A DNA stretch of 64,000 nucleotides, taken from positions 69,628-133,627 of the IMG/VR virus record IMGVR_UViG_3300047476_000597; one strand, 5' to 3'. The position numbers were made by a program, and so were the translations under genes. The notes under the pieces were generated by a model. It was given only the letters and a program-made list of their open reading frames with translations. It was not told where the DNA came from and did not search any database. Origin of the DNA: a virus. Of the stretch, positions 653 through 63,204 are shown piece by piece (the stretch's first letter is position 1; each line of letters begins with the position of its first letter).

Positions 653-1243
653 ATGTATACACAAAACGATGAAGAGTTTTACATCTTAGGGTATTTTAAA
701 GATTTTGTAGGAACCTGTTGTGAGATAGGAGCCAATGATGGAAAATACATAAGTAATACAGCTGCTTTAATAGATAGAGGATGGAAGAGTTTTATGGTTG
801 AGCCATCTAAGGCTTTTAATAAACTAAAAGATAACTATGCTGATAATCCTAATGTAGTATGTGTAAACGCTGGTATTAGTACAAAAGATGAAGATGTTGT
901 GTTTTATGAAGGTAGTGATTCATTATTATCTACTACACAAGAAAAACTAGTAGAGTTTTGGAAAGAGTGTACTTTTACTCCTACTACTGTAAAGATGCTC
1001 ACATGGAAAACTTTCTGTGATACATACAATGCAGGTCCTTTTGATTTTATATCACTAGATGCCGAGGGAATGGACTGGGATATTTTACAACAGATAGATC
1101 TTTCTAATACTAGCATGATATGTATGGAATATACAGCTGGTAATATACAATCCTTTGAGTCTTATTGTAAAAAATATGGTATGGTTAAATTAACGCATAA
1201 TGGCGAAAACCTTATAATGATAAGACCCAAAAAGAATGAATAA
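653..1243 (+). CDS. FkbM-family SAM-dependent methyltransferase
   Basis: MYTQNDEE start (ATG 653; the track starts at 641), EIGANDG SAM-binding motif, SNT, VEP, and DFISLDAEGMD..IL motif typical of FkbM. Confidence 0.85.
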   Translation: MYTQNDEEFYILGYFKDFVGTCCEIGANDGKYISNTAALIDRGWKSFMVEPSKAFNKLKDNYADNPNVVCVNAGISTKDEDVVFYEGSDSLLSTTQEKLVEFWKECTFTPTTVKMLTWKTFCDTYNAGPFDFISLDAEGMDWDILQQIDLSNTSMICMEYTAGNIQSFESYCKKYGMVKLTHNGENLIMIRPKKNE

Positions 1244-46200: not shown

Positions 46201-49200
46201 ATAGAGCGTGGTTCTTTCAGGAATAGCACTGTACAGCCTAACCAGTATGTGAATAATATAGGTACCAGTGCTAATGTTGCTAAGAAGGTTATACCAATAG
46301 GTACTGAGACTATACAGACACCATCAGGACCTAAACAGGTTACTAAATACCTACCACAACAAGAAGGAGAGATAATATCTTCTACTATGGCTGCTTTGTT
46401 CCTGAAGAAAGCTCTATTAGAAGGTAGCTATAATACTAATGCAGTATATAAAGAGATACTAGATACATATGCTGCTATGTATAATCCAGCTGATCCAAAA
46501 TACCGGGAGAGAGCTAAAGAGATGTCTAGAGTAGACAAAGAAGCTGCTATACGTTGGTTTCTTAGACTGAAAGAACGTCACAACCTGTTTATATCTGATG
46601 CTGGTAGAACTGCACTAAAAGATGCTGCTAATGTCTACCTAAAAATATCTGGTATAAAAACAGAAATGGAAGAAGATGAGGTAGAAGATCTTACAGATGA
46701 CTACGGAGAACGTAATGTAGAAGATAGAAAACGTCCTACTACATACGCTGCCCTATCTGCATTCTTACGTCAGTTTATAGGTGGTACTACTGTAACATTC
46801 ACCGATGAGTTTGGTAATACAGAGTTTTCAGCAGGTGTTCCATTAGTACAGGCTATTAATGCTAATAAGGTGTACAATGGTATGATTAAACTGCTGTCTA
46901 ACCAGTCAGGTGCTACTGATATGATTAGTCGTATGTGGAGTATGCGTAATGATGATAGCAACCCAGAGACAGCTGCATTCATCAGAGAGGTAATAAGAGA
47001 AACTGGTCTAGAATATGATGATACTACTAAAACATTCACTACAGCTAAGAATAGTATACTCATACAACAAGTGATAAAAGGGTTCAACATGTTTGAACTA
47101 GATCATCTGTTTGTACAGATGGATAATAATAATAAGGTGCGTGTATTTTCAGCTAACTCACAAGAGGTAACACAGAATCAACTGAATGCATGGAGCTCAG
47201 AGTTTGAAATACGTCTAGGTAATAAACTAGTAGGCAAGAGCAAGAAAGATGTAAAAGAGATGGTGACTGCTGCTACTGGTGGTTTTGATGAGATGTTGTC
47301 TAATATGAATAACAAGACAGCACTAGCTACACATATTGGCACTGTTGAGCTGCAAAACCTTAGTAAACAGATAGCTAACAGAATATATGCTGGTACCGGC
47401 ATTAAACTGTCTCCTAGATACATAGAATATTCTATTGCTTTTGCTAAAGATGATAATGTAAGGACAGCTGAACAACGTGTACTGTTACGTGGTTATACTG
47501 ATGTGGAACCATTAACAGTTGAAGATATTAGGGGTATAAAATACTCGTTGCTAAAAGGAGATAATGTATTCATAGAAACAGAGGACAATAAAGGAGCTAT
47601 TGGTAGGTTAAAAACAATGGCACTGGGTAATGCACAGTTTGATGAGTCTGTGAATACCATGTCGTACCAAACAGCTGATGGGGAAACTGTGTACTCTCAT
47701 ACACTACCATCTTGGATTACTGTTATGACTAATAAACTGAACAATGAGATGTTCAGAGAAGACCTTATGCAAGATCCTGATAGACGTTCTTTCTTATTAG
47801 AGAGTGAACGTTTCTTAGAACTAGCTAGACAACGTAAGATAAAGGTTATAGGAGCAGATGGTTTAAAAAGAGTAGACATGTTTGAGCCTGGTGCTACTGT
47901 AGATGATATTGGTAGGGCTGTTACTAACACTGATGGTAAGGTGATGGGTGATTTTACGCCTAGAGAGTTTTTGGTCTACCTATTATCTACGTATGTAAAA
48001 CCTAAAAATGTTGTTACAACACAAAAACCCATAGAGAAATATACAGATGAAGAAGGTGTAGAGTATGCTACAGAGGCCTTTACTACTGCACCTGTTATGT
48101 TGCGTACTATAGAGGCTAAAAACCAGATGTTCTTTATGGAACTACCTATTGTTGCAGCTGTAGAGAATAATAGATTATCACAACAGGTAGTAGACATCAT
48201 GTATGACATGGTGCTGCAAGAACAACAGAGAATAGCTAGAGTAAAAGAAGAGATAAAGACTATAGCAAAACAAGCTACCAGACCACTAAAAGACGGTGAG
48301 GTTAGAGTAGAGGTAAAAGAAGGGTATCACACTGGTAAAAACCCAAGAGGATTAAAACTATTTAATACTGCTCTTATGATGGGTGACATGGCTGCTGATA
48401 TAGAAGCTGGAAAACCTATAGATAAGGATGCACTAACAGAACAGCTGAACAGATACTGGTTAGCAGAGACAGAAGCCCTTATTACTGACATGCGTGTATT
48501 AGGTCTTGTAAGAAAAGAAGAAGATGGTATCAAGAATCTGTTGGCACCAGAGTACCTATTCAAAGGGGAGAAAGGTGATTATAACCTAATACCTGGTGAT
48601 TTCTTTCATAATGTAATGCAGGTGTTTGTCAATGACTATGTGAATAGTGCTGCTGCTAATAAACTGTTATTAGGAGAAGAGGCTATGAGTTTCAAGAATA
48701 CCATAGATCAGGTTAAGAGAGCTTCTGGTTGGGCTGCTGCAGGACCTGATATGAGAGTATTAGTAACGGCACCAGAGTGGGGTATTAATCACACACTCAG
48801 TACATTCCACCACTTCACATTTGCTGATCCTAGGTTTAGAAAGATGACTGACGGTGTTGATAAGAATGGTAAACTAGAGGCTACTGGTGACAAAGCAGAT
48901 GCTCTGATGTACATGACTGAAAAAGCACAGAGATATGCACTATTCGGTTTTGGTACGCTCAACAAAACACAGGTAGATGCTCTTAATACTCTAGCTGATG
49001 GTAATCAGTTATCTAAAGAAGAGGTGTTTGGTTCTGACGGATTAATAAAAGCAGGTGCTTTTAACAGTATGAAACTGGTGTATTTTGATGGACAAAACTA
49101 TCTCAAAAACTCTACTATAACCCTATTCAAAACATTTACATCTCTACCAGACAGTAACGGAGAGTTCACTATACCATTCCCAGGTCTAGAACATCTGCAT

Positions 49201-52200
49201 GAGTTACGTCTTAAGATGGAAGAGTTTGAGGCTAAGAGTGATACTATAGTGTTTGGACACCCTGTTACTGCTTCTAAGGGCATGAAGGTAGATATAGCAC
49301 CTACTGTTTCAGCTGTTACTGATAGTAACTTCCAACAGCTAAATGCTCAGTACATGAGAAAACAGGTAGAGAATCCATCTAACAAGATACAGATTACCTC
49401 TCCTACTCAGGCTATGATTCAGATTATGGCTGAACAAAACCCTGATACTAAGGTTGTATTCTTAGGTAGTGAGAAAGACAGTGATGGTAATGACTGGACT
49501 GTAGGTAGAATACGTGACATATATCAAGAGAGTATAGCACAAAGGAAGACTAATAGTTTTAATACAGCTGTTAACGACATAGTAGATTATGAGGGAGCAT
49601 TAGTTGAGTTACAGACTAGTATAGACATACAAAAGCTGACTCCTAAACTAGGTCGCTTTATTAAGAATGCACAGGAGATGTTAATGGCTACTGGTGCTGA
49701 CAGCCAGACACTAGGATTCTTTGAGCTAGACGCACAGGGAGAACCTATATACGACATGAACTTTCCAGCTGTACTAACAAAATACACGCAGCTGTTCCTT
49801 AGTTATTTCTCTAAGGGCATATTATCAGAAAAGGTTCCTGGTATGTCAGTAGCTACTGTGTCACCATGGGGTATACGTAAGATTAAAATAGTGACTAGTA
49901 TATGGAAAGAAGGTGACAAGGGCTACAAGAAAGCACTAGAAGGACAACCACGTACATGGAAGGTAGTAACAGATGCTGAGATAAGAGCTAATCCAGCTGC
50001 ATATAGTAATCCTATTGACTGGAGTACACAAGATGAGTATGCAAGAAGATACGAGGGGCTACAGGTAGGAGATATATACGTAGATGATCTTAGACACAAC
50101 TATCCAAAATACGATGAGAAAGGTAATTACCTAGGACAGTTTTCTGAGTGTCTTATACCAGCTCATTATAAAGATGTTATGGATAAAATACCAGAAGCAT
50201 TACGGTTTATGTTTGGTATTCGTATTCCATCTGATGATAAGCACTCTTATGTAGCACTAGAGTATGTAGACACATTACCGGCTCAGTATGGTAGTGTTGG
50301 TGTATTCCCACAAGAGATTATAGAGATCTCTGGTATGGACTTTGATATAGACAAGATGTACATAGAGATGGCTGATACCTATGCAGAACTGCAAAGAGAA
50401 AACCAAGAAGAATATGATACGTTAAAAAATATAATAGACAGAACAAAAGCCAGATTAAACGAACTTTCTGGTATGTTTGAAAATACTCCTGGGTATTCTA
50501 AAGAAATAGCAGACAAAGGACGACAGATAAAAGAAGTAAAGAAATATGTTAAAGCGCAGTATGACAATCTAGTTATTACAGAGTCTGATTACATTGATAG
50601 AATACAAGAACTGGATAATGAGTTAGAGTCTCTTGGTACTATGGAAGGAGCAAAATATAGAAGACCTATCATACAAGAGATGAAATCTTTATCTGGACAA
50701 TTAGTAGGAATAAAAGCCAGAATAAAACAATTAACAGAAACATCTGTTAGAGTGGCTTATGGTTCAAAAACTGACACACAAGGAATATTTGATGAGTATG
50801 TAAAATGGCAATTTGCTAATAATAATGCATTTAGAGCTAAAATAAAAGAACTAGCTAGTATAGGACCAGTTGATGTAGGTGGAGATATAGTAGGTAATAT
50901 AAACTCAGACATTATAGCAGACATAGAAGATATTTATGAGTTATTATCTGCAACTTCTATAGATAAGATGATTCTTAAGACTGCTTTAGCAGAGTTAGGT
51001 ATGCCTACTGATGCTATAGAGTATTATAATATGACCCATGAAAATGGTGTACAGATAAAAGATCTCAACAACGGTGTGCTTACTAACAAAGCTCTATCTG
51101 CTAAACTAGCTATGTTAAATAACGATGATATTGCAGTAGATACAGAAGAACAGCTGTCTATACTCAACCAGGGTACGTCAGTAGACATCCTCAGTAGTTT
51201 AGTAGATGACCTTGTTGTAGAGTTTACTGCTATGCAATCTAACGAGAGCATACCAGCTGCAGATAAGAAGAACATCACTAGAGTACTGAAGGTTCTACAG
51301 GAACCAGATGTTAATGTGGATAGTCTTAGAGGTAAACTAGCTTCTAATATGAATAACAAAGAAGGTAGCCGTAATATTGGAGCAGCTGTTCTATCTATGT
51401 TGGTGTTCTCTACACTGAACCAGCACAATATGACACTGTCATCAACAGACTATCAGCTGTCGTTTGATGGTAAGGACTATTTTAGCTTCATAGATACTAA
51501 AACAACTGATGGTAAAAGAAAGTTTGCACAGATCTCTGCTATTGTGAATGCAATGACGGACAATGCTAAAGAAAGACTAGCAGCTAAACTAGGACTGAAC
51601 ATAGAAGCAGTTGGTTATGTATCTGCTATGGTGGCTCTTGGTGTACCTATTAAAACAGCTACACTAATGATGTTACAACCTATAGTAAGAACCTATTTTA
51701 AACAGCTACAGGCTACTAAGGGTAGTATAAAAACAGACGAAGAAAAAAAGGTACGTGCTTCTACTTTACTAGCTAACATAATAGACAGTGTTAAAAACAT
51801 TGGTGGAGTAGACCTTACAGATACTAACATGATTAGCAATATAGCTGGTGGTGACAATAACTCAGCTGTTAGTGCATCTGCTATACGTATGTTGGCTAGA
51901 GTAGATAAGGTATCACAAAACATTGCACAGATAGCTAAGGTTACTAGACTACAAAAGGGATTGCCAAAAACATATGAAGAGATTGATAGTATACTATCAA
52001 CTATAGCAACATTGTCAGATCCTTTTACACCGGCACCTATACCATTCTTTACTGTTATAGGTACTGATCCTATTATGCGTACTAACATACGTATATTGGA
52101 GCAGATCAACAGTATAGCACCAGCATTCTTTACAGAAAGAACGGCTGCCTTTAAGAACATAACAGACATCATACATGCTAACTTTGAACCAGAAAGAAGA

Positions 52201-53898
52201 GCTGATAGAGATAGGTATATAGCTACTGTTAAGAACGACCTACTATCTTTTCTAGCTATTAAGGCATATATGCACAGTATGGCTGGTAAACCAGAGGTTA
52301 AGAATAGTCTACGTCACTCACTCATATATTCTACAGCTGGTGAACAGACTATTGTAGATATAGTAAAAGAGCTCAGAGAGTTAATATCAACGGAGGGTAG
52401 TGGTAGGAATAGAAAGAACCTAATGATACACAACTTCTTGAATGCTGTAGATGCTAAGATAACAGAGACCGGTATAGATGAGTTACGTGCTAGAAACTGG
52501 ACTAAACTATCTGAGGGGTATATAGAATCATTAGCTGGTGCTTTTGTAGACCTATATTCTAACAGTATCACAGACAAGAATAATAAACCTCTTAATACTC
52601 ATACTCAGGCTATTGCTATATTCAACTACCTGTTAGTAAAAGACGGTGGTCAGTTTAAAAACAACAGTTTCTTACGTTACATACCCAACTTTGTATTCAT
52701 GGATCTGTTATCTTCTTCTAAAGAGGTTAATAAGATGATGAAGCTAGGTTATAGGGCTACTGAAGAAGATTACATGCGTGTTTTTGGTGCTTTATTGCAA
52801 GATGTTAGGAAACAGTTTATAGATAGTTATGGTATGCATACTAACAACTTCTATAACATTAAGAAGGTATCTGGTTATACTGGTGCTATTACTGTTACTA
52901 GAACTGATATTAAGATAAACACTATAGTAGCACCAGCCGTTAAACTGGATACTATTGGTGGCCTCTCTTACACTACTGAGATAAATGAGAACACTGGAGT
53001 AAAAGAGGTAATATACCAGCTGCCCTACTATGTTAAGATATTAGATAAACTATATAAACTCTCTACCGTAGATGGCGCAGCTGTAACAACAGGCTCTAGT
53101 ACTTCAATACAAACAGGTAAAGAGGCTGAGTATACTGTAGTATATGGTGGTTCTAGAGGTTCTAAGAATACATCTATGATGACTGGTGTATTTGGTGAGT
53201 TACCTATGAGACCTGGTGTAAAACCAGCTTATACACAAGGACAAACAGAAGCAGCACCAGTACCTGCAGTTGGTACTGGTAATTTTACACCTCAAGAAGA
53301 GTATTCAGCTCCTTTTGAAGATGAGTCTACTATATCTGCTCAACCTGTTGTATCTTCGCAACCTATGCAACCAGTGCAACAACCTACAGCTGCTCAGAAA
53401 ATAGTTAATGAGATTGTTACTCCTGAGTTACAAGAGAAAGCTATGGGAACAAAGGTATGGACTGAGTTTTCTGTTGGAGATAACATAAGAGGTGAAATTA
53501 TTGGCAATATAGAATATGCAGGTGATAATGGTTTTGCTCCCAAGATACAACTAACTGTTATGGAAGATAACGGAAAAACATGGAGTAGAGTGTTTTCTTC
53601 TAGTGATAATGATTCTTGGAGATATGAGAAAGTTTTTTATGATGTGTACAATAAGATACAAGATAACTGGAACAAAAAGAAGAAGCAACTATACAAAGCA
53701 TTAGAACAACCTACAGCTGGTACCACATTACCCGGCTCAGTATGGAAAACAGAACTAGCTGCTATATATAAAGAGAAAGGAGATAAAAAAGGAAGGACTG
53801 AACTAGAATGGACTGAGGCTGCTACTAGATTCAGAGACAAAGAAAGACAAACAGGAGCTACAGATCAACAGATATTAGACACTATAAAATGTATATAA
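40225..53898 (+). CDS. Virion-packaged RNA polymerase polyprotein (crAss-like, double-psi barrel), 4557 aa
   Basis: Catalytic ISGMDFDIDK at 50338-50352 preceded by GIRIPS; AMTDNAKE; zincin HEAFH at 45871-45885; hydrophobic N-terminal helices. Confidence 0.92.
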   Translation: MFNSNIISESITPTLVGAGIPTPHLQQQFYQTGLLPSNTENDVPPLDIMDSLMADMKKAAPTKEAGMAPDYFNWDKSGAAQYVNDRHFSTIGFDPFASGITDPTTGKTANPYEIRYQQASDWGDVMGKAAGQFVGLAGLTIKAGLQSDAHLINALFNPASWSDYLSGKDTFVNKLAGSPEELLETDKELKDIMNKYHIYQTPITQEGIFNKEFLGDIVGQLGFSAGAAGYMMGTGLLLGGLGRIVGSGKNIAAMTRLGKAMEQMKDVGHLEDLKQVQNLMSSGKTATAISEDVNMVKRMTDLGKNRSFIEGVVENFTPFYQAITDARAVKTAGGTSMQMFQATVPGLIKNYTMFSAARAEASIEAAGTYGDMYIGLMDSFYEKEGRLPDATEAMNIKNAAYGAATDNYIVNTGLLMTMNNIQFGNMMSKFSSTKRLFRELAEASDDGLMAVKGKLKDGVNDVYRVYNKNSFGGIGAYNKVRKDFGLGTAMYTVLKNNAKNLGKWEVSEGLQELLQEGSNRSLTEYYTNMYHGNKDVDGNILNRVDLAKGLGDQLNKEGWKTFLMGSVTGLFMSPLTSAVMYGKTAGAKALYSNVREAAENKKKTVEANRQLLETFFNNPDTATKGFSRFKEQMKVSKNIGDAAAINDPYMSHNSKDDAISQAAGAAVKAGMLDAFVDNIRMMGDGRFTPKEFMEQFNLTEEVNPKQYTEQLATNIEQYYINWQNLKDRYSDLIIPELEKDPAKQLDAQWKKAALNEAIEILAYNTYHAGSAMTRAAEIKTAASQIPGIGQTTSRIFDLFGNNSELDKEIKLLQLNLKTLKDTATGDLELTQQVKATEDRIKALESWKEKYNRLLDSKEESEEMDNLKTELQLYMRLYIESDNQSSGRSNTNLLDSDFEKAFKLLGDYNALNRDYSQYIEILNLLSNPKNFVTMHSKLFDAMTAARDTVKEEAKKEADLRADITNGDPVPADTTKEDDEDDDFADSDVLPVDTYTPVEPKTKEDLEFAIKQLEDAFQARVANLVANGATEQDARDIAEKETPQDDKDALTSLKEKLATLKNTEEPETTEDVEDDADGQPVVYTNQQNKDKIQNINNMNILTLAGTAEQKAAKDAVLRDITPEELRAGLRLISRLSVDDIEKVELPDGKIQLLDKRVTTSVKDLGTYATEDEVDAAIKKAMMPFKKGDYVQQMRSTYTVAVYYNDTLIGYLQPPQQYLFTFNGHLVDVNSLTPEQFAAVAIIPEGMTAEKALIQFQQNVTNSLSVWSGLEPLLSAGNTTLSGEEIPFRITPSRGENDFNNEKESIQFNNEIEKIEKERQEKLSRVQDVLITPAEDLSYREVKEDPYSIQENIKKQIKKLQDHIETLKKGRLYTYLRDYGTTKPKTGLYAYYIARDNSTNPNVSTIGRVTGVLGNKFKTDKNDKLIGDQQTIVGSNNYYYFLPFEITQEEDTSKAINDIENKKQPFVAELAEIEKDIVYLNRPVLKPIKTKNQKAIDSINADYNKKIAALEASIPDRPTLADIQALYEVEGIIDNSANEVYYGNPRLIEEQPEYANNLGNYRVAVKLPNGQRVWLQAKGIKMTDSDVKDIAKKITAFFGKKKKTVKDIETLNELLSTIFITARPENANGIFFDFRISDKGNLAVRWYDPFMNEGQGASGVIDVAKNETPFTDMSSFTTYLTAVINTAMTSDVAVKEGVMWPKDGVVFTEYNVRKQPDVNALDQMEITSNIGLVKNIVPSVVPETPAPIKGLEVIPAQTDIPIEPSVEGKSSVDVPVAVTQETNGTQPTVESLAQLEDDDWIDSIIALKTVPADEVFTGQSVENIGRFSDYIKKNLPSWLTIEEVDSFIDTLYNNNITAGEFMYYLDKTGNVQAVIRTNKDSVGKYHEAFHMVFRLLLPQETIDRLLNEVAGIYPATPARLQALRESSPLYTEMSEEQLTEILYEEYMADQFDAFRMGRTDRVTTGIRGFFNRLTDWINWLWAQFTGADMKGLFYEIERGSFRNSTVQPNQYVNNIGTSANVAKKVIPIGTETIQTPSGPKQVTKYLPQQEGEIISSTMAALFLKKALLEGSYNTNAVYKEILDTYAAMYNPADPKYRERAKEMSRVDKEAAIRWFLRLKERHNLFISDAGRTALKDAANVYLKISGIKTEMEEDEVEDLTDDYGERNVEDRKRPTTYAALSAFLRQFIGGTTVTFTDEFGNTEFSAGVPLVQAINANKVYNGMIKLLSNQSGATDMISRMWSMRNDDSNPETAAFIREVIRETGLEYDDTTKTFTTAKNSILIQQVIKGFNMFELDHLFVQMDNNNKVRVFSANSQEVTQNQLNAWSSEFEIRLGNKLVGKSKKDVKEMVTAATGGFDEMLSNMNNKTALATHIGTVELQNLSKQIANRIYAGTGIKLSPRYIEYSIAFAKDDNVRTAEQRVLLRGYTDVEPLTVEDIRGIKYSLLKGDNVFIETEDNKGAIGRLKTMALGNAQFDESVNTMSYQTADGETVYSHTLPSWITVMTNKLNNEMFREDLMQDPDRRSFLLESERFLELARQRKIKVIGADGLKRVDMFEPGATVDDIGRAVTNTDGKVMGDFTPREFLVYLLSTYVKPKNVVTTQKPIEKYTDEEGVEYATEAFTTAPVMLRTIEAKNQMFFMELPIVAAVENNRLSQQVVDIMYDMVLQEQQRIARVKEEIKTIAKQATRPLKDGEVRVEVKEGYHTGKNPRGLKLFNTALMMGDMAADIEAGKPIDKDALTEQLNRYWLAETEALITDMRVLGLVRKEEDGIKNLLAPEYLFKGEKGDYNLIPGDFFHNVMQVFVNDYVNSAAANKLLLGEEAMSFKNTIDQVKRASGWAAAGPDMRVLVTAPEWGINHTLSTFHHFTFADPRFRKMTDGVDKNGKLEATGDKADALMYMTEKAQRYALFGFGTLNKTQVDALNTLADGNQLSKEEVFGSDGLIKAGAFNSMKLVYFDGQNYLKNSTITLFKTFTSLPDSNGEFTIPFPGLEHLHELRLKMEEFEAKSDTIVFGHPVTASKGMKVDIAPTVSAVTDSNFQQLNAQYMRKQVENPSNKIQITSPTQAMIQIMAEQNPDTKVVFLGSEKDSDGNDWTVGRIRDIYQESIAQRKTNSFNTAVNDIVDYEGALVELQTSIDIQKLTPKLGRFIKNAQEMLMATGADSQTLGFFELDAQGEPIYDMNFPAVLTKYTQLFLSYFSKGILSEKVPGMSVATVSPWGIRKIKIVTSIWKEGDKGYKKALEGQPRTWKVVTDAEIRANPAAYSNPIDWSTQDEYARRYEGLQVGDIYVDDLRHNYPKYDEKGNYLGQFSECLIPAHYKDVMDKIPEALRFMFGIRIPSDDKHSYVALEYVDTLPAQYGSVGVFPQEIIEISGMDFDIDKMYIEMADTYAELQRENQEEYDTLKNIIDRTKARLNELSGMFENTPGYSKEIADKGRQIKEVKKYVKAQYDNLVITESDYIDRIQELDNELESLGTMEGAKYRRPIIQEMKSLSGQLVGIKARIKQLTETSVRVAYGSKTDTQGIFDEYVKWQFANNNAFRAKIKELASIGPVDVGGDIVGNINSDIIADIEDIYELLSATSIDKMILKTALAELGMPTDAIEYYNMTHENGVQIKDLNNGVLTNKALSAKLAMLNNDDIAVDTEEQLSILNQGTSVDILSSLVDDLVVEFTAMQSNESIPAADKKNITRVLKVLQEPDVNVDSLRGKLASNMNNKEGSRNIGAAVLSMLVFSTLNQHNMTLSSTDYQLSFDGKDYFSFIDTKTTDGKRKFAQISAIVNAMTDNAKERLAAKLGLNIEAVGYVSAMVALGVPIKTATLMMLQPIVRTYFKQLQATKGSIKTDEEKKVRASTLLANIIDSVKNIGGVDLTDTNMISNIAGGDNNSAVSASAIRMLARVDKVSQNIAQIAKVTRLQKGLPKTYEEIDSILSTIATLSDPFTPAPIPFFTVIGTDPIMRTNIRILEQINSIAPAFFTERTAAFKNITDIIHANFEPERRADRDRYIATVKNDLLSFLAIKAYMHSMAGKPEVKNSLRHSLIYSTAGEQTIVDIVKELRELISTEGSGRNRKNLMIHNFLNAVDAKITETGIDELRARNWTKLSEGYIESLAGAFVDLYSNSITDKNNKPLNTHTQAIAIFNYLLVKDGGQFKNNSFLRYIPNFVFMDLLSSSKEVNKMMKLGYRATEEDYMRVFGALLQDVRKQFIDSYGMHTNNFYNIKKVSGYTGAITVTRTDIKINTIVAPAVKLDTIGGLSYTTEINENTGVKEVIYQLPYYVKILDKLYKLSTVDGAAVTTGSSTSIQTGKEAEYTVVYGGSRGSKNTSMMTGVFGELPMRPGVKPAYTQGQTEAAPVPAVGTGNFTPQEEYSAPFEDESTISAQPVVSSQPMQPVQQPTAAQKIVNEIVTPELQEKAMGTKVWTEFSVGDNIRGEIIGNIEYAGDNGFAPKIQLTVMEDNGKTWSRVFSSSDNDSWRYEKVFYDVYNKIQDNWNKKKKQLYKALEQPTAGTTLPGSVWKTELAAIYKEKGDKKGRTELEWTEAATRFRDKERQTGATDQQILDTIKCI

Positions 53899-53902
53899 AA
53901 TA

Positions 53903-56900
53903 ATGGCAAGCTGTCCTAACTACAACGCACCAGAGTTTAAAGAAATAGAGGCTTTGTTTGGAAGAACAAGATCTACTCTTGCTTTTCATAAAAATAATGA
54001 TACAATACCATCACCAGAACTAGCAGCCCGACTATTACGTGTTAAACTAGAACCAGTACTAGATTATGAAGAAGCTGTTCAACGGTTACTAACAGGTTTT
54101 GAAAAAGGCTTAGTAGCAGTTACTAACACCCCAGATAGATATGTTTATAGAACTACTAAAGGTGGGTATACAGAAATAGCAGCTAAGGTAGCAGAGTGGA
54201 AAAACAAAACTACTGCTTTTAGTAAGGTTAGGGTAGAAGCCAGTGATAACTATGAAACCTTTCGTTTTGTTCGTGTTACTGAACCATATAGCAAACTAAC
54301 AGAAGATGAGTTTGGAGAGATATACCCAGAACCACTATCACCAGCTATACAGGCTCGTATAGAGAGAGAGGTAGAGGCTCTTATGTCTAATGAGTACTAT
54401 AATAAAGATGGTGAGCTAGTTAGTAGTGCAGATGATATAAAATACCAGCTTACTAATGCAACAACAGAACAACCAATACAAGACCTAGACAACATTATCA
54501 AAAGATTCGTAGCTGCTATGGGTGGTAATGTTACTAATGTAGGTGACATTGTTATTAACGGCAAAAAAATAGATGCTGTAGCTGTTGTTGATATTCTTAA
54601 TAGAGCTATACAGATAGCAGATGGTAAAGCAGACATCACTACTCTACCAGAAGAAGCAGTCCATCTATTCATAGAACTATTACCAGCTAACCATCCTCTA
54701 TTAAAAGAGATGCTAGCTGACATTAAGAAGAAACAGGTGTATCAAGATGTACTAGCTGAGTATGGTACTAACGAGTTTTATCTCAACCCAGATGGTACTG
54801 TTAACACAGATAAAATAGCTAAAGAGGCTATTGGTAAACACATTGCAGCTGTTATAGTAGGTAGATATAAAGACACTAAGAGTATGTCTTTTTGGAAGAG
54901 ACTGTGGAGATGGATCTCAGAACGACTAGCTGGTAAAAAACTAGATGCCTATACACAGGTAGCTAAGGATATACTAGGTGGTAAACTGAGTAAGATAGAA
55001 GAGACAGCTGCTAAAAAAGCTAATAAAGAAGGTCGTTATTGGTTCCAGCTACCGAAGAATACTAATGCTATTGTACAGGGTATTGCAGCTACCGGCACTA
55101 AACAACAAAAGGAGATAATCAGAGACTTGGTTATAGAACCAAAGGTTACATTCATAGAGAATAAAGCTCTTGGTGTACGAGAATATCGTAGTACTATTAT
55201 AGGTAATGAGGGTAGAACATATCCTGGTTTCTCATCACAGCTGGCTGTAGAAGGGCCACCTAATCCAGAAGAATATGAGATTAATAGACAATGGGGAGAA
55301 GACCTAGACTCTATACTAGCCGGTGTTATATTGAACCAAAAACTATCAGACATTAATACTCCTACTCTTAATGATACTATCAGACAAAAGGCATACGATC
55401 TGTTTGAAGAGTATCTATCACCATACAAAGAAGCTGGTTATGTAGCTGTACCACAGGTTATTGTCTATGACGATGCTGCTAATATAGCATCTGCTATTGA
55501 TCTGTTGTTAATATCTCCTACTGGTGCTCTAAAAGTTGTAGACCTAAAAAGCTCTTGGACATCTGCTGCTAATATACAAAAATACAAAGGAACAGCATGG
55601 CCGTTGTTACCTACCAGTAGAGTAATCAGCAATACACAATCTATATCAAAGTTCCGTCAGCATAATGTACAGGTTAATACCTACAACAAACTGCTACGAC
55701 TCATGGGCTATCAAGATATAGAAGATGCTGCTATTAAGAATATACAGATAATGTATAGGGACAATAACGGTGTTTTTACAGCTACTGATATAAAAGAGGA
55801 TAATGACCAAACAACAGCCGGCACTGGGTATGTAAAAGAACGTGTTGTAGATCCATCTGCTGAAGAGGGACTAGTAGAGCTTATGGTCCCTGTAGCTGTT
55901 GATTATACTAAAGACAACCTAGAGACCTGGGGAATAAAACCTAAGATAACAGCTAGTACAGAGCCGGAATCTAAACCGTATGAACGTATAGACGAAGAAC
56001 TAACAGCTGATGATAAGGATAGTCTATCTAAAGAGTTCTCTAATATGTTTGAGGCCCTTAAACAATATAGAACATTGTTAGCAGATAGAAGAGCAAAAGC
56101 TAGTAATGCAGAAGAAAAAACAGATAGGTCAAAAGCTCTAGACACACTAGAAGAGGTCATGAGTACTATGCTTGCAGCTGTTGATAATACTAAGAATGGT
56201 AGAGAGATAGCATACACACAGTTTCTTTTGTATGTTAATAAGGGACTAGAGGATATAATAACAGTACTGAGTAAAGAAGAGAATAAGCACAACCCACTGT
56301 ATCTACACTGGACTATTATGGCCGAGGCTTTTGTTACTCAGTTTCAGGGCTATACAGGTTTATTCAGATTCTCTAATAAAAAACAAGAATGGAACAACCT
56401 TATTACAGATATAGCAGATAAACTAAGAACAGTACAGCCTATTATTATAGACTCTTATAGACAAGGTGTGTTAACATCTGTAATAAAAAAATACAGTACT
56501 AGAGATGTTATACTAGAGTCGTTAGTAGAAAAAGATACAGATCTTACTAACATGGCTGCTACATTCATAGATATGGCTAATTCTCGTAATGCCATACTAG
56601 AGAATCTAGACAAGAGTTTTAAACATGATGTAGAGCTTATCAGGGAAAGTACTGATGCTATTGATAATAGAATAGTAGATGCTGCTAACCAGGTTATAAA
56701 AGCATTTGGTAAAAAAGATGCTAGTGTGTTTGAACTATTGTTTGAAAAAGACCGTCATGGTAATAAGACTGGTAGATTCATATCAGCAATAGGACCTGTA
56801 TACTGGGAAAAAGAAGAGGCTCTTAGAGAACCACTACTAGATGAAAATGGTCAGTATAAAGAGTATATAAAGAATCCTAAAACAAAAGAAGACCTACAGT

Positions 56901-59440
56901 ATAATAAAGACCTTGCAGCTGCTCGTAAAAACTCTTATATGTTCTGGACTGCAGAAGATAGAGTATATGATGAACAGACCAGACAATACAAAAATGTAGA
57001 AGGTACATACCATAGATATACTAAAGAATATCAGGATGCTCGTAATGAGGTAATGAGATGGAATAGTACTGAGGGAAAATGGGTACCTAAAACTACTAAT
57101 GCTGCTTATTGGAACTTTATTAATAAATACCACTCAGCAAAAGTTGGTTATTATATAGCTGATAGAAAAAAGAATAGTAAGGGTATGTACGAGTATACAG
57201 GCACACTAATGTATGTAGATGCTGTTAGATACACACCGCACCCACAGTATAAGGAGATACTAGAGACTAGTAACGATGGGCAAGATATGTCTAATCCGGT
57301 ATACAAAAAACTACAGAAAGCTACTGATGCTAAGAGTGTTGCTTTATGGAACTTCTTCAATGTCTATAGGAATATACTATCTGAACAACAAGATGCGCTT
57401 CCTACATATACCAACAGCTGGTTCTCTAGGAATAACATCCCTAGAATACAGGCCAACTGGTTGAACATGATGGCAAAAGAAGGTAGTAATAAGAGTGCTA
57501 TGATTAGTAGTCAGATTAAGAGCTTCTTTGAGATTACAGCATATACACATCAACCTGCAGTAGCTATGACTGGTGACTCTTCACAACAGTTACCACTATT
57601 ATTCATGGGTAGGTTACGTGACCAAGCTGTAGTACAGAGACTAAAAACACAGCTGGCTAAACACAATAGTATAGATACTACTAAAATGTCTGCTATTGAA
57701 AAAAGAGCATGGAAACAAGAGCAGAGTAGAATAGAAGAGAACATTAAAATAGAAAACGCTAGAATAACAGCTGCAGATATAGAGCCAGATCTAGTAGAAG
57801 GGTTACGTGCATTTGTACAGATGTCTCAATCTTTCAAAATAAAAAGAGCAGCAGAGGATAGGATTACAGCTGTAAAAAAGACTATAGATAACATGGTCTT
57901 TATACAGGAAAAGAAAAACATGCTAGGTAAAGTAGTATCTACTAAAGAGGTAGCTGGTGTAGACTCTAATGCAAAACAACGACTTTCCGACTACCTAGCC
58001 ATGAACTACTATAGTGGTGAGGCTGTTTCTAAAGAGTTTCTAGACATATTGGCTGACCGACTAATGAAGGTGACATCTACTATAGGACTAGGTTTTAACG
58101 TGTTCTCTTGGGCCAACAACGTTACTACTGGTGTATTGAACAACTATATAGATGCATATGGTGGAGAATTATACCAGAAAAGGTCTCTTAACAGAATGAA
58201 AAAAGAGTCTACTCTTGCTATTGGTGCATTAGTAAGACACAAGATGGATTCTGTTGTTAACAAGACTCTAGGGTATGATAAACAAAAACCTGTATCAAAA
58301 TACGAGGCACTGTCTCAGAGATTTAACATGATAGAACACCATATACAGCAGCACTCTGGTAAGGTAGACTGGATAGCTAAACTAGGTGGCTTTACTGGTA
58401 TGGAAAAAGGTGAGTGGTTAGTACAGAGTATGGTTGGTAATGCGATACTAGATTCTATTCAGGTTGAGTATACAGGCAGTGATCCAGCTAAAAAAGGTAG
58501 TAAGAAATCTCTATACGATGCTTATGAGTTTGATGAGAAAACAGGTGCTGTTACTCTAGAAGAAGGCTATGAGCTATCTGACCATGACCGTAGGGATATT
58601 ATTAATAGAATACGTGAGACTAATAAGAGAATACATGGTAACTATCGGGCTATAGATAAGGTTGTTATTGAAAAAGAATGGTGGGGCCGTGTTATGATGC
58701 AGTATCATAAATGGGTTATACCGGCATATTCAGCTAGGTTCCGTAAACTAAAATACGATGAAAACCTTGGTGGTGGTATGCATATAGAGGGTAGATGGAG
58801 ATCAGCTGGTAAGTTCCTAATGGCACTCAAAGACCGTACTATTACACTACAGACTCTTATAGATACTGTTAACACAGACTATACTAAGATGGACCCAGCT
58901 GCTCAGAAACAGTGGTTACTAGATGTCTGGAGTGGTCTTATTACAGCTGAAGAGTGGGATGAGATGTCAGATGAGGAGAAAACATCTTTAATAGCTCACC
59001 GAAAGAATAACCTACTCAAAGACCTGATGGACCTTGTATACATTGCACTACTATCTGTATTAGGCATATTGATTGCAGCTGTAGCAAGAGGTTTAGATGA
59101 TGACGATGAAGAGGTTAAGAAACTACTCAACTTCTTCAGGTACCAGGCAGACAGAAGTACAGCAGAATTAGCACTATTCGTACCTATCCTAGGTATCATA
59201 GAGGGCTATCAGCTGGTCAAAAACACCATAGCATCTACTAGTATAATAAAAGAAGCTGGAGAGTTAACAAAAGCACTACTGCAGTTTCCATTCATACCAG
59301 ACAGTGAGAAGACTATACAACGTGGTCCTAACAAGGGAAGATACAAGGTAGCCAAAGAAGCTGGTGATATAATACCTATCATTAAACAGCTACAACGTTG
59401 GAATGCCTTTGAAACTACTAAAGAGTTTTGGGTAAAATAA
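53903..59440 (+). CDS. Large ejected virion protein with degenerate zincin, PD-(D/E)xK nuclease domain and C-terminal TM
   Basis: TLPEEAVH; AIDLLLI..VVDLKS..QVNTY; RIHGNY; hydrophobic LVYIALLSVLGILIAAV. Confidence 0.75.
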   Translation: MASCPNYNAPEFKEIEALFGRTRSTLAFHKNNDTIPSPELAARLLRVKLEPVLDYEEAVQRLLTGFEKGLVAVTNTPDRYVYRTTKGGYTEIAAKVAEWKNKTTAFSKVRVEASDNYETFRFVRVTEPYSKLTEDEFGEIYPEPLSPAIQARIEREVEALMSNEYYNKDGELVSSADDIKYQLTNATTEQPIQDLDNIIKRFVAAMGGNVTNVGDIVINGKKIDAVAVVDILNRAIQIADGKADITTLPEEAVHLFIELLPANHPLLKEMLADIKKKQVYQDVLAEYGTNEFYLNPDGTVNTDKIAKEAIGKHIAAVIVGRYKDTKSMSFWKRLWRWISERLAGKKLDAYTQVAKDILGGKLSKIEETAAKKANKEGRYWFQLPKNTNAIVQGIAATGTKQQKEIIRDLVIEPKVTFIENKALGVREYRSTIIGNEGRTYPGFSSQLAVEGPPNPEEYEINRQWGEDLDSILAGVILNQKLSDINTPTLNDTIRQKAYDLFEEYLSPYKEAGYVAVPQVIVYDDAANIASAIDLLLISPTGALKVVDLKSSWTSAANIQKYKGTAWPLLPTSRVISNTQSISKFRQHNVQVNTYNKLLRLMGYQDIEDAAIKNIQIMYRDNNGVFTATDIKEDNDQTTAGTGYVKERVVDPSAEEGLVELMVPVAVDYTKDNLETWGIKPKITASTEPESKPYERIDEELTADDKDSLSKEFSNMFEALKQYRTLLADRRAKASNAEEKTDRSKALDTLEEVMSTMLAAVDNTKNGREIAYTQFLLYVNKGLEDIITVLSKEENKHNPLYLHWTIMAEAFVTQFQGYTGLFRFSNKKQEWNNLITDIADKLRTVQPIIIDSYRQGVLTSVIKKYSTRDVILESLVEKDTDLTNMAATFIDMANSRNAILENLDKSFKHDVELIRESTDAIDNRIVDAANQVIKAFGKKDASVFELLFEKDRHGNKTGRFISAIGPVYWEKEEALREPLLDENGQYKEYIKNPKTKEDLQYNKDLAAARKNSYMFWTAEDRVYDEQTRQYKNVEGTYHRYTKEYQDARNEVMRWNSTEGKWVPKTTNAAYWNFINKYHSAKVGYYIADRKKNSKGMYEYTGTLMYVDAVRYTPHPQYKEILETSNDGQDMSNPVYKKLQKATDAKSVALWNFFNVYRNILSEQQDALPTYTNSWFSRNNIPRIQANWLNMMAKEGSNKSAMISSQIKSFFEITAYTHQPAVAMTGDSSQQLPLLFMGRLRDQAVVQRLKTQLAKHNSIDTTKMSAIEKRAWKQEQSRIEENIKIENARITAADIEPDLVEGLRAFVQMSQSFKIKRAAEDRITAVKKTIDNMVFIQEKKNMLGKVVSTKEVAGVDSNAKQRLSDYLAMNYYSGEAVSKEFLDILADRLMKVTSTIGLGFNVFSWANNVTTGVLNNYIDAYGGELYQKRSLNRMKKESTLAIGALVRHKMDSVVNKTLGYDKQKPVSKYEALSQRFNMIEHHIQQHSGKVDWIAKLGGFTGMEKGEWLVQSMVGNAILDSIQVEYTGSDPAKKGSKKSLYDAYEFDEKTGAVTLEEGYELSDHDRRDIINRIRETNKRIHGNYRAIDKVVIEKEWWGRVMMQYHKWVIPAYSARFRKLKYDENLGGGMHIEGRWRSAGKFLMALKDRTITLQTLIDTVNTDYTKMDPAAQKQWLLDVWSGLITAEEWDEMSDEEKTSLIAHRKNNLLKDLMDLVYIALLSVLGILIAAVARGLDDDDEEVKKLLNFFRYQADRSTAELALFVPILGIIEGYQLVKNTIASTSIIKEAGELTKALLQFPFIPDSEKTIQRGPNKGRYKVAKEAGDIIPIIKQLQRWNAFETTKEFWVK

Positions 59441-59477: not shown

Positions 59478-59795
59478 ATGCCACAGAACGATTGTCTTTT
59501 TTTCTTTGTTCATTTGGACTCAACAGGTGCTCCGATTCCATCTACTATGTTCTCTAAGACTAATAACAAGATAGATAAAGGGTTTGAGTGTGTAGAAGCT
59601 CGTGTACCAGCTACACAGATGTCTAGGACTAACCAGTGCTTTCCAGCTAATGGCTTCAGGTACTACTACAAAACCCATAAGACTACCGGACGTATTCTTC
59701 CTAACAGTATGTATCAGTCACAAAAAGCTCCTAAGAGTTTCTGTACTGGTCGATATAACATCCTAGAGTTTATTGTTTATTCAACTACTGTATAA
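59478..59795 (+). CDS. Small hypothetical protein with internal duplication
   Basis: FFVHLDSTGAPIPSTMF and YYYKTHKTTGRILPNSMY halves; coupled to the endolysin. Confidence 0.6.
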   Translation: MPQNDCLFFFVHLDSTGAPIPSTMFSKTNNKIDKGFECVEARVPATQMSRTNQCFPANGFRYYYKTHKTTGRILPNSMYQSQKAPKSFCTGRYNILEFIVYSTTV

Positions 59796-60442
59796 TGACA
59801 GATAACAAACAACCATTTTGGAGCAAATTAGCTGGTAAAATACCTGATAGCATACTAACAGAGCTTACTACTATAGTTCCTTTGTTTGATATAGATGGGC
59901 CTAAGAGATTGTCTAATCTATTAGGACAAGCACACCATGAGTCAGGAGGTTTTAAACAGCTGTATGAGAATCTTAACTACTCGGCACAGAGTCTAGCAAA
60001 CACCTGGCCTACTAGATATGCTGTTGACTCAAAAGCAAAAGATAAAGTACCTAATGACCTAGCTAAGAAACTACAAAGAAAACCAGAAGCCATTGCCAAT
60101 AACTGTTATGCAAACAGAATAGGTAATGGTAATGAGACTTCTGGTGATGGTTGGTTGTACAGAGGTCGTGGGTATCTACAGACTACAGGAAAAGATAACT
60201 ACAAGGCACTAGGAAATTATCTGAAGATAGATCTCATAAAAAACCCAGACCTTGTAGCTACTATGTATCCATTAGCATCTGCAGCATTCTTTTTTATGAA
60301 TAACGTAAAATGGACTCTGTGTGACCAAGGTACTGATGCTATGACTATAGAACGTATTACTCGTAAGGTTAACGGAGGATTGCATGGTTTAGATGAGCGC
60401 ATTAAACACACGCAGCTGTATCATAAACTACTTACTGGATAA
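59795..60442 (+). CDS. GH19 (chitinase-like) endolysin
   Basis: LGQAHHESGGF..LYENLNYS, GDGWLYRGRGYLQTTGKDNY and ITRKVNGGLHGLDER motifs. Confidence 0.92.
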   Translation: MTDNKQPFWSKLAGKIPDSILTELTTIVPLFDIDGPKRLSNLLGQAHHESGGFKQLYENLNYSAQSLANTWPTRYAVDSKAKDKVPNDLAKKLQRKPEAIANNCYANRIGNGNETSGDGWLYRGRGYLQTTGKDNYKALGNYLKIDLIKNPDLVATMYPLASAAFFFMNNVKWTLCDQGTDAMTIERITRKVNGGLHGLDERIKHTQLYHKLLTG

Positions 60443-61454: not shown

Positions 61455-61684
61455 TATTCTAGTTTATTGTTTAGTTGGTTCATAATCTCTTTCCACACAT
61501 CTTTCTTTTCATACTCACACAGTACTTTACCACAGCTGGTTGTATACTCTATACAGTATAGATTGTTGTCTACCCATGATTGAATATTACAACCAGCTGC
61601 AGTGTTTATATGGCAGTGGAGTGTATCGTTTATATATACTTTTATGCGGTGATACAGTACTTTTACCTCTATCTTAGTTGGCAT
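61454..61684 (-). CDS. Hypothetical protein
   Basis: 76 aa, coupled stop/start. Confidence 0.6.
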   Translation of the reverse strand: MPTKIEVKVLYHRIKVYINDTLHCHINTAAGCNIQSWVDNNLYCIEYTTSCGKVLCEYEKKDVWKEIMNQLNNKLE

Positions 61685-61803
61685 CTTGTTCTTATTCTTT
61701 TGACCATTTTTCTACTCTTCTCTCTTAATATCCAACGGTACTGTTTCATCATTATATTATAACCTATCTGAAAAGGTAACATCATCTCTTCTAGTGTTTT
61801 CAT
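61669..61803 (-). CDS. 44-aa protein with a portal-like segment, absent from the ORF track
   Basis: Hand translation MKTLEEMMLPFQIGYNIMMKQYRWILREKSRKMVKRIRTRCQLR*; ATG overlaps the upstream TGA (ATGA) and fills the gap between neighbours. Confidence 0.7.
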   Translation of the reverse strand: MKTLEEMMLPFQIGYNIMMKQYRWILREKSRKMVKRIRTRCQLR

Positions 61804-61994
61804 TTGGATTTTATTATTACTTTTTGACTAGTTACATGTTTTACTACTTCTATAGCATATGCTTCCATTGCTTCTATGTAGCAGCTGTGCATACTACATA
61901 GTGGACAATCAGGTGCCGTTAACCCTCTATCTTTGTATGCTGGATCACAGTTACAGGATACATATTCTTCTAGTATTTCTTCAGCTGTTTTCAT
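61800..61994 (-). CDS. Small protein (MKTAEEIL...AMEAYA type) with CxC/CxxC
   Basis: 64 aa, ATGA-coupled on both sides. Confidence 0.65.
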   Translation of the reverse strand: MKTAEEILEEYVSCNCDPAYKDRGLTAPDCPLCSMHSCYIEAMEAYAIEVVKHVTSQKVIIKSK

Positions 61995-62557
61995 TGGTTT
62001 CTTCTATTTACTGTTATCTGGAACCACTCTTCTGCAGCTGGATTCTCTCTGCAGTATGTTACTATTTGTTCTTCTAGTTCTTTTATTCTTAATGCTTGAA
62101 TAAACAGCTGTGGTTTTGTTGTATCTATAGAGGATTTTTCTCGGTTTGCTTCTGATGACTCATGTAACAGGTATTCTTCAGCTTTTTTATCTGCTTCTGC
62201 ATTCCAGGGTATGTGCCTAGTGCTTTTTTCTAGTACTTCTTTAACAGAGTTGTTTTTTATTTCATAGTATTCTTCACTGAGTGGGTCTATTCTTCTTTCT
62301 TTTCCATTTTCATCTATATGTATCATACACTCTCCACAGATTAGTATATCATTGAACGTTTGATTTTCTATTTCTTTGACTGTATTATCTCCAGCTATTC
62401 TTTCTATTACCTTCCACATTTCTTCTTCGGAAGAGCTTGTTATTAGAGTTGCTATATCAGATATTGGTATACCATAAGATGTCACACCTTCTTTTACTAG
62501 TTTCTGTACTTTTTCTATTATCTCTTTTTGTTCTTTTGTCAATGTCGTTGTTACCAT
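61991..62557 (-). CDS. Hypothetical protein containing a portal-like segment
   Basis: Likely start 62557 (ATGGTAA overlap with the UDG-like stop); contains EIENQTFNDILICGECMIHI..RIDPL. Confidence 0.65.
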   Translation of the reverse strand: MVTTTLTKEQKEIIEKVQKLVKEGVTSYGIPISDIATLITSSSEEEMWKVIERIAGDNTVKEIENQTFNDILICGECMIHIDENGKERRIDPLSEEYYEIKNNSVKEVLEKSTRHIPWNAEADKKAEEYLLHESSEANREKSSIDTTKPQLFIQALRIKELEEQIVTYCRENPAAEEWFQITVNRRNQ

Positions 62558-63204
62558 ACTATGGGTGTTTGATTGTTTGCTTTTATCCACTCATTAGTTC
62601 TATTCCAGCAGTCTCTTGTATTGAGCTCTGGGTATGTACTAACATATATCTTTTTGTCTGTTTCTAGTAGATCTATTACGCTGGTTGTTCTAGTACCTAT
62701 GTGCATACATGGTATTTCTGGTTTAGCGGTATTCATCTTGTTTAGCATATAGGCTACAAACGGTTTCCATATCTTGTAGTGCGGTGTGCCGTACATTCTT
62801 GTTGTACATGACATTGGCATTATGAGTACTCCCTGATTACACCAGCTGCCTACATTCAGTGTTTCTCTTTTCTCTGGTAGTGACCCTAGCAGCTGTTTCT
62901 GGAGTTTACCCATGTTATTACTCTTATCATACAATGGTATACCGGTATTATTATTGAACAGGTTCTTATTGTCTGTATCCACTAACATTAGTACTGATAC
63001 ACTATCATATGGACACTCATACAACCACGAGAACATATCCTTTGCAGCTGGTACAAATTTCCCATTGAACACCCTGTCTTCATCTAGTGCTTCTATGATA
63101 CTCCTAAACTCAGGGCTTATCCACCACATCCACAGAGCATCAGACCAACCAGAAGGTTGTAATCTTTTTTTCAGTTCTTCTATTATTTTTTCTGTATTTA
63201 TCAT
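62551..63204 (-). CDS. Family-1 uracil-DNA glycosylase homolog with degenerate catalytic motifs
   Basis: ECPYDSVSVLM, WCNQGVLIM and HYKIWKPF match the UNG scaffold; GQDPY is replaced by VDTDN and HP by YP. Confidence 0.75.
   Translation of the reverse strand: MINTEKIIEELKKRLQPSGWSDALWMWWISPEFRSIIEALDEDRVFNGKFVPAAKDMFSWLYECPYDSVSVLMLVDTDNKNLFNNNTGIPLYDKSNNMGKLQKQLLGSLPEKRETLNVGSWCNQGVLIMPMSCTTRMYGTPHYKIWKPFVAYMLNKMNTAKPEIPCMHIGTRTTSVIDLLETDKKIYVSTYPELNTRDCWNRTNEWIKANNQTPIVW

Follow-up and report, generated by a model that had tools for sequence, protein, structure and literature searches.

The DNA analyzed here, called the window, is a stretch of 64,000 nucleotides that forms the last 64 kb of the 133,627-bp virus record IMGVR_UViG_3300047476_000597, which is rated complete by CheckV. 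The phage is crAss-like. Its portal gene (4565-7321, plus strand, 918 amino acids) matched phrog_6547 of PHROGs at 4.6e-68, and a profile of the portal matched gp20 of crAss001 (PDB 7qog_A) over the full length at 1.5e-33. The nearest records in the phage collection were Leptolyngbya phage Lbo-JY46 (27% identity), Cellulophaga phages, and gut crassviruses, and the public sequencing runs that contain the locus are labelled as freshwater or lake metagenomes. The structural genes form a block on the plus strand that closes with a GH19 endolysin (59795-60442), downstream of which lies a cluster of small genes on the minus strand, none of them matched in the libraries. One of these, an accessory gene for a protein of 199 amino acids, is the subject of this report. 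Profile searches indicate that a central module of its product, here termed module M, is a diverged copy of a wing segment of the Crassvirales portal. The features discussed are listed below.

61991-62590, minus strand: accessory gene, 199 amino acids from a GTG at 62590, or 188 amino acids if the start is the ATG at 62557
62396-62548, minus strand: N-terminal part, residues ~15-65, a probable second portal-like piece (crown and base of barrel)
62255-62419, minus strand: module M, residues 58-112, predicted helix, beta-hairpin, and P-[YL]-S-E-E-[YW] helix, a putative diverged copy of the portal wing segment
62279-62374, minus strand: core peptide of module M, residues 73-104, the subject of an earlier note on this DNA
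62096-62254, minus strand: variable linker, residues 113-165, without portal similarity (alignment A1; hhalign with the whole protein gave no further portal match)
61994-62095, minus strand: C-terminal module (C module), residues 166-199, nearly invariant in 10 proteins with differing N-terminal parts
5171-5335, plus strand: portal wing segment, residues 203-257 (gp20 ~164-216), resembled by module M
6737-6886, plus strand: portal crown and start of barrel, residues 725-774 (gp20 ~638-682), resembled by the N-terminal part
61669-61803, minus strand: mini-gene of 44 amino acids, a likely copy of a portal stem helix, found in a sliding portal scan

The 5' end of the accessory gene overlaps the end of the upstream gene (62551-63204). 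Homologues P0007, P0008, and P0012 start with MDKRKQSN..., in agreement with the GTG start, and P0004 and a record in the ESM Atlas start at the methionine that is residue 12 of the accessory protein. Sequence searches returned 6 relatives in a 90%-clustered collection and 15 at E ≤ 0.001 in a library of 1.84 billion representatives; those of full length include P0004 (62% identity, 93% of the query covered) and P0007 (42% identity, 98% covered). Judged by its sequence, the 199-amino-acid protein is a mosaic.

The earlier note had pointed to a peptide, EIENQTF...RIDPL, as a portal-like segment. The peptide is present as residues 73-104 of the minus-strand open reading frame (ORF) 61991-62590, and the 6 identities in 20 positions claimed for it against the portal were confirmed on the printed sequences (portal residues 222-241, within the portal peptide 222-256 encoded at 5228-5332). 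Its span had been given as 62279-62420, of which the upper bound is out of frame and yields a translation with stops; the exact span is 62279-62374. The terminal DPL of the peptide is the window's variant of the x-P-Y that characterizes the module family described below.

The relation of module M to the portal was examined with hhalign. A 12-sequence module alignment was compared to 38 portals of the phage's own lineage, and the top match was portal residues 201-257 (P 2.6e-4, probability 42.6%). When only the module columns were used, the score was 37.0 (P 6.4e-5, probability 64%), compared to 11.6 for the reversed module, a mean of 14.7 and a maximum of 29.9 for 150 column shuffles, and 21.9 for the next-best portal site. 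Both halves of the family matched the same portal site, the window's lineage with P 0.0057 and the other eight members with P 3e-4. Twelve very different portals were then added, those of crAss001, cr108_1, phi14:2, cr111_1, Dulem virus 41, cr85_1, IAS virus, cr128_1, cr116_1, Lbo-JY46, csAssE-Sib, and phi17:2. Against a set of 22 diverse Crassvirales portals the module scored 44.9 (P 2.7e-6, probability 88.5%), a score reached by none of 150 column shuffles (maximum 23.5). The signal thus rises with the diversity of the portal profile, from 64% to 88.5%, as homology predicts.

A hidden Markov model (HMM) was built from residues 198-262 of the 22 portals, with no module sequence included, and the window's complete set of 434 stop-to-stop ORFs was searched with it. 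The portal itself was found at 3e-30, followed by the accessory ORF at E 7.9e-6 (20.8 bits, residues 71-102), with the next ORF at E 1.6. In controls, 43,400 shuffled ORFs scored at most 14.8 bits and 20,000 shuffled versions of the protein at most 12.6 bits, short of the 20.8 bits of the accessory ORF, and 11 of the 14 family members ranked above every unrelated ORF. In the reverse direction, a module HMM made without the window's sequence found the accessory ORF, and then portals alone filled the next 24 places. Among 133 portals searched, a domain was reported in 117, and in every one of these the best module domain started at residues 150-270.

Of P0015 alone, residues 14-113 aligned with portal residues 203-304 over 93 columns (probability 85%, P 6.3e-6), taking in a second conserved block downstream of M. 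The ancestral piece would accordingly have had ~100 residues, the first half of which was kept in the window's protein. Module M shares W-A, E-L/I-E, F-x-D/N-x-L, and H with the Crassvirales wing segment, and module and portal are 14-17% identical in the hhalign alignments. The reciprocal profile searches and the shuffle controls together indicate that module M is a diverged copy of the Crassvirales portal wing segment. Another stretch of the portal, residues ~426-469 (5840-5971, plus strand; L-I-Y-G-E-H-I...), has a weaker similarity to M (hhalign P 0.022), which may be noise or may reflect a structural repeat within the portal.

Module M is common to 14 small proteins of 50-277 amino acids that are 26-59% identical to the window's copy, and 10 of the 14 lack the C module. 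Its signature is W-A, F-x-D-x-L, M-[VI]-H-[IVF]-[DN], G, and R-I-x-P-Y-S-E-E-Y-W-x-I-K, to which the window's copy conforms (alignments A4 and A6), with a leucine after the proline where most members have tyrosine. The H, I, and P are invariant among the 14 proteins, and D, M, S, and E are nearly so. Proteins with the module have at least four architectures: M stands by itself, is combined with the C module or with a longer portal piece, or is embedded in a protein of 277 amino acids. P0015, P0016, P0021, and P0022 form a subfamily that keeps the longer portal piece, including a block like the D-V-I-D-K-Y-G region of the portal; P0013 begins with MEQQN. A search of viral contigs with module alignment A4 returned none, and one with A2 returned two loci, both without M. 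No relatives were found in metagenome scans or by megablast of the locus against the phage collection, and sequence searches of the PDB with alignments A2 and A6 gave nothing relevant.

The module HMM did not score all portals alike. In the main portal clade, a sister to that of the phage, the median was 9.6 bits and 69 of 112 portals scored at least 8 bits, while the phage's own portal and its 7 nearest relatives scored -1.2 to 4.3 bits and 284 unrelated ORFs scored at most 5.9 bits. With its own portal clade in the noise and the sister clade well scored, the module fits a mimic that would spare the phage's own portal. The earlier claim that the peptide fits P22 and crAss-type portals better than its own portal does was borne out in its crAss part, since an HMM made from Steigviridae portals only found the accessory ORF at E 0.0039, compared to E 0.16 with the own-lineage portals. 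The P22 part failed: P22 gp1 matched neither the module nor the portal segment, and it aligned with the Crassvirales profile weakly and elsewhere, so that the segment was not mapped onto the P22 tryptophan belt described in the accessible portions of PMC9320234 and PMC13386823. Capture from another phage, which had also been proposed, is loosely supported by the higher scores of the sister portals, yet the module family is itself diverged (14 proteins, 26-59% identical); any capture would therefore be old, with no donor that can be named.

AlphaFold2 modelled residues 51-125 from 14 sequences with a predicted local distance difference test (pLDDT) value of 73.4, as a helix (3-34), two strands (39-42 and 48-51), and a second helix (56-74). 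The whole accessory protein was predicted with a pLDDT of 48.1, too poor for use. By profile alignment to 7qog_A, M corresponds to gp20 ~164-216 and the N-terminal part to gp20 ~638-682. In the accessible text of PMC10172136, the gp20 barrel comprises residues 672-739, a capsid-adaptable loop spans 268-319, and SH3-like wing loops at 337-380 hold the cargo protein gp45. Since gp20 ~164-216 precedes both the capsid-adaptable loop and the wing loops in sequence, M would be placed in the N-terminal wing. A structure search of the ESM Atlas returned a PF16510 cluster of 204 amino acids with a template modelling score of 0.38 (residues 66-121), which serves as no more than a lead. Prediction of a complex between portal residues 1-760 and the module gave scores of 0.00 and 0.00 in runs without controls and has no bearing on the question of binding.

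The N-terminal part of the accessory protein (residues ~15-65) is common only to this protein and P0004. A profile of P0001 and P0004 matched the 22 portals at residues 725-774 (hhalign score 32.2, P 2.3e-4, probability 44%), a score that none of 150 column shuffles reached (maximum 19.4) and that compares to 11.3 for the reversed profile. Three crown-segment HMMs each ranked the accessory ORF first among non-portal ORFs, weakly, with E values of 0.042, 0.02, and 0.36. Pairwise, the N-terminal part was not significantly similar to the phage's own portal, as 105 of 1000 shuffles scored as high. The odds appear roughly even that this part is a copy of another portal segment, one taken from the crown and base of the barrel. 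The earlier description of the peptide as flanked by unrelated helices therefore holds on the C-terminal side only, the N-terminal flank being weakly portal-like itself.

To scan the portal without bias, its alignment was cut into 43 windows of 60 residues, and each was searched against all ORFs. Among the 434 ORFs of the 64-kb window, two non-portal ORFs were found at E < 0.001, and the next best was at E 0.011. With the diverse portals, these were the accessory ORF, matched by portal 201-260 at E 5.5e-6, and the 44-amino-acid mini-gene, matched by portal 501-560 at E 1.2e-5; the portal-like segment of the accessory gene is thus different from the first such segment at the locus, as the earlier note had held. 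The same two ORFs were found in the whole genome (1,810 ORFs of at least 30 amino acids), with the next at E 0.014, and Bonferroni correction over the 43 portal windows still left about 2.4e-4 for the accessory ORF. When only own-lineage portals were used, the mini-gene was found at 3.4e-6 and the accessory ORF at E 0.15.

The mini-gene resembles the accessory gene in being small, optional, and apparently portal-derived, in lying on the same strand and in the same cluster two genes away, and in having been found by the same scan. It differs in copying another part of the portal (501-560) and in matching own-lineage portals well where M matches them poorly (3.4e-6 versus 0.15). Along the minus strand, the portal-like pieces follow in the order 725-774 (crown), 203-257 (wing), an unrelated gene of 64 amino acids, and 524-545 (stem helix). 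A decaying second portal gene was rejected as an explanation because the pieces are not in portal order.

The C module is the best conserved part of the protein, with 31 invariant columns in the seven sequences of alignment A1, of which residues 168-196 account for 25. It closes 10 proteins of 57-199 amino acids, four with module M and six without, and by its near-invariant C-terminal end of ~30 residues the accessory protein belongs to this family, an orthologous locus in related phages. At the DNA level, there are about 5 differences in ~95 nucleotides compared to the IMG/VR relatives L001 and L002 (alignment A3; L001 6150-6250). The C module could represent either a joint left by recombination or a functional tail common to these proteins. 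The idea that it is a tag common to many proteins of the phage was rejected, as it is present in a single copy in this genome.

Natural variation at the locus was apparent in public runs and in relatives. A contig from a run of an RNA library covers 62181-62557 with 32 differences and represents a related allele of the module region. In a contig from lake-water DNA, an in-frame replacement has removed 62091-62548 (the N-terminal part, M, and the linker), and 62090 is joined to 62549 through 74 other letters. Alleles without the mini-gene occur in two runs, in which 61687 is joined to 61827 through 37 letters. One public run (X2) had no coverage over 61859-63021, a gap from which no conclusion is drawn. 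The relatives L001 and L002 have neither M nor the mini-gene, and they carry a different N-terminal part and an extra gene of 73 amino acids. Together, these alleles and relatives suggest that the portal-like parts are optional cassettes at a conserved locus. In L001 (6230-6500), the extra 73-amino-acid gene lies between the accessory-gene homologue and the next gene and has a short repeated junction (AACAGTAAA.AGA...ATGAA) on either side, suggestive of cassette insertion at gene boundaries. A scan for sigma-70 promoters was at chance, with 19 sites found and 17.8 expected.

The accessory protein is far too short for a portal. Portals have a wing-stem-clip-crown architecture of ~700-900 amino acids, and only portal residues ~203-257, and probably 725-774, have counterparts in the 199-amino-acid protein. 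We consider it most likely, at a probability of roughly 45%, that this mosaic protein with its portal pieces, the wing and probably the crown, acts as a microProtein or dominant-negative fragment. The pieces would be made apart from the late structural genes, presumably early, and would compete with the full-length portal for a binder. Candidates for that binder are portal subunits and a partner in portal assembly, either of which might belong to a co-infecting relative, and a host sensor that recognizes portals. Each virion holds twelve copies of its portal, which thereby counts among the low-abundance proteins favored for fragment inhibition. Protein fragments inhibit by titrating native interactions at oligomerization interfaces or folding contacts, most easily for proteins of low abundance, according to the accessible text of PMC9245647. 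Like a microProtein, the accessory protein is a small protein homologous to part of a larger oligomeric protein, with a putative interaction-bearing role for the wing segment. The homology with segments of the portal, the intact gene, the conservation of M in small proteins, the alleles with and without M, and the second portal-piece gene nearby are observed; the binding, the early expression, and the effect on assembly or immunity we infer.

A number of results weigh against such a role for portal pieces. The pairwise similarity of the peptide to the phage's own portal is at chance: the best alignment of the accessory protein and the portal by BLASTP had E 46 and lay at a different site, and 333 of 500 peptide shuffles reached the score of 25 of the peptide's ungapped core. 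The term portal-like segment is thus upheld by the reciprocal profile searches and fails as a pairwise match. The search with portal profiles that had been proposed as a check succeeded with the custom portal-segment HMM and failed with the libraries: Pfam returned five sub-threshold families and PHROGs three families at E ≥ 0.055, none of them a portal. Among 12 family members, the two libraries gave no consistent family (phrog_27442 matched four of the 12, best E 0.0087), and the lone portal match in PHROGs, to P0014 at E 0.072, is at noise level and lies mostly outside M. HMMER scores of the family HMM on Steigviridae portals were in the noise. When the members were compared singly, eight of 12 pointed to the portal wing and four preferred portal 426-466. 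Foldseek (PDB and BFVD) and a wide VIA-align search with the module model found no portal and nothing at E ≤ 0.001 (best Z 4.5), the rows returned being generic helix-hairpins or coiled coils. The P-Y-S-E-E-Y-W-x-I-K motif, best conserved in the family, has no clear portal counterpart in the alignments. The contig from the RNA library is weak evidence of transcription, as carried-over DNA is possible.

Some of these results would be expected if a common amphipathic helix and beta-hairpin scored against portal profiles by chance or convergence. The chance-level pairwise match, the generic structural matches, and the hhalign probabilities of only 42.6-64% with own-lineage portals fit this explanation, and the family members are mutually related, so that their agreement is not independent evidence. 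We nonetheless regard it as highly improbable, since no shuffle reached the real score (0 of 150, 0 of 150, 0 of 43,400, and 0 of 20,000), the significance survived correction for the 43 windows, the reciprocal search placed the module consistently in all 117 portals for which a domain was reported, and P0015 lengthens the match to 93 columns, a further conserved block among them. A by-product of recombination, in which a hotspot shuffles pieces of phage genes into short ORFs of little or no function, would account for the alleles lacking the N-terminal part and M or the mini-gene, for the other joints seen in public runs, for the different N-terminal part and extra 73-amino-acid gene of L001 and L002, and for the 3' end of the gene, conserved at the DNA level like a recombination joint. 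This explanation appears improbable, as M is retained at the protein level in 14 members whose identity falls as low as 26%, with frames left open and some positions invariant. Moreover, the allele without M is an in-frame replacement (458 - 74 = 384 nucleotides), and the order of the three portal-like pieces departs from that in the portal, so they do not form a decaying portal gene.

A different case is exaptation, in which M descends from the portal wing and now serves an unrelated role, for instance as a regulator or protein-protein adaptor with a target in the host, and does not compete with the portal. The absence of a portal counterpart for P-Y-S-E-E-Y-W-x-I-K indicates that the M family may have gained a function of its own, and the four or more architectures of M are in keeping with this, as are the low portal identity of 14-17% and the replacement in the module of portal-invariant D214, R217, D235, M243, and D247. 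If the portal origin were irrelevant, however, the clustering of portal copies within 900 bp, in another gene and probably also in another segment of the accessory protein, would be hard to explain, and W-A, F-x-D-x-L, and H, which are conserved in the family, are among the positions that it has in common with portals. Exaptation is therefore somewhat unlikely in our estimate.

A wider proposal is that the locus holds an arsenal of portal look-alikes, the protein with its non-adjacent wing and crown pieces and the stem-helix mini-gene. In view of the closer resemblance of M to sister-clade portals, these would either poison portal assembly of co-infecting relatives and spare the phage's own portal, or serve as monomeric bait for a host sensor that responds solely to assembled portal rings; we consider this unlikely. 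The portal sensors named in the accessible parts of the literature are Avs4, Avs11, SpbK, and RAZR. RAZR is described there as activated by assembling around portal-sized rings, with T7 escape mutations clustered in one region of the portal, and a monomeric bait could in principle block such a ring-assembling sensor. Avs1-4 are described as recognizing the folds of the large terminase and portal, Avs2 in particular reportedly sensing the terminase, and newer Avs families as binding through extended interfaces. None of these accounts of portal sensors offers a match to the copied segments at the level of portal regions. Because these sensors bind whole folds, a piece of ~50 residues would make a poor decoy, and an Avs-type decoy role for the accessory protein is doubtful. 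We dropped a further candidate, an early substitute for the RelA/SpoT-binding function of the T7 portal, because that binding needs an intact ring, as stated in the accessible portion of its source. Both of these last points add to those counted above against a role for the portal pieces.

The proposed microProtein or dominant-negative fragment can be set beside three known systems. The first is the Crassvirales portal itself (crAss001 gp20, PDB 7QOG; PHROG 6547; PF16510 P22_portal in relatives), which M resembles in the wing and the N-terminal part probably resembles at gp20 ~638-682. The accessory protein differs in its length of 199 amino acids versus 800-920, in having no stem, clip, tunnel loop, or barrel, and hence no channel, and in the non-portal order of its pieces, which are joined to a non-portal linker and C module. 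Dominant-negative fragments and microProteins (Savinov et al. 2022, PMC9245647) are likewise short, separately encoded pieces of larger oligomeric proteins; those in the accessible text of that work were laboratory-made from E. coli proteins, whereas the accessory fragment is natural, diverged, and fused, and its activity is putative. Blockers of portal-triggered defense such as Nip, which acts against SpbK, take part in the same conflict, with portals as immune triggers, but Nip, as described in a review, binds the NADase domain of SpbK instead of copying the trigger.

We found no portal-fragment mimic, decoy, or gene described in the literature searched, which excluded subscription journals and supplementary files. 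Natural microProtein-like fragments are a known kind, and the apparently portal-derived version, with its putative function, is new within that literature. Portals are essential, low-copy, and conserved, and several bacterial defense systems use them as infection signals. If the proposed role is correct, separate portal pieces would constitute a new class of accessory genes in counter-defense or phage-phage competition, and would be a natural, evolved counterpart, taken from a virion protein, of laboratory dominant-negative fragments. The pieces would also mark portal surfaces that matter for assembly or sensing. Genes of this type are missed by pairwise and library-profile searches; those described here were revealed only when segment profiles of the phage's own structural proteins were searched against its small ORFs.

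Several further observations were made in the window. Pfam PF16510 did not match the phage's own portal (4565-7321) at E ≤ 10, and it is present in the precomputed annotations of some relatives that are 44-45% identical to this portal. Upstream of the portal gene, an ORF of 1,109 amino acids (1236-4565, plus strand) has in its translation a cysteine after a hydrophobic run and LAGLIDADG-like motifs, and it looks like a large terminase split by an intein-like insertion. At the end of the structural block are two giant ORFs on the plus strand, 40225-53898 (4,557 amino acids) and 53903-59440 (1,845 amino acids), which presumably encode proteins typical of crAss-like phages, namely the virion RNA polymerase or cargo proteins.

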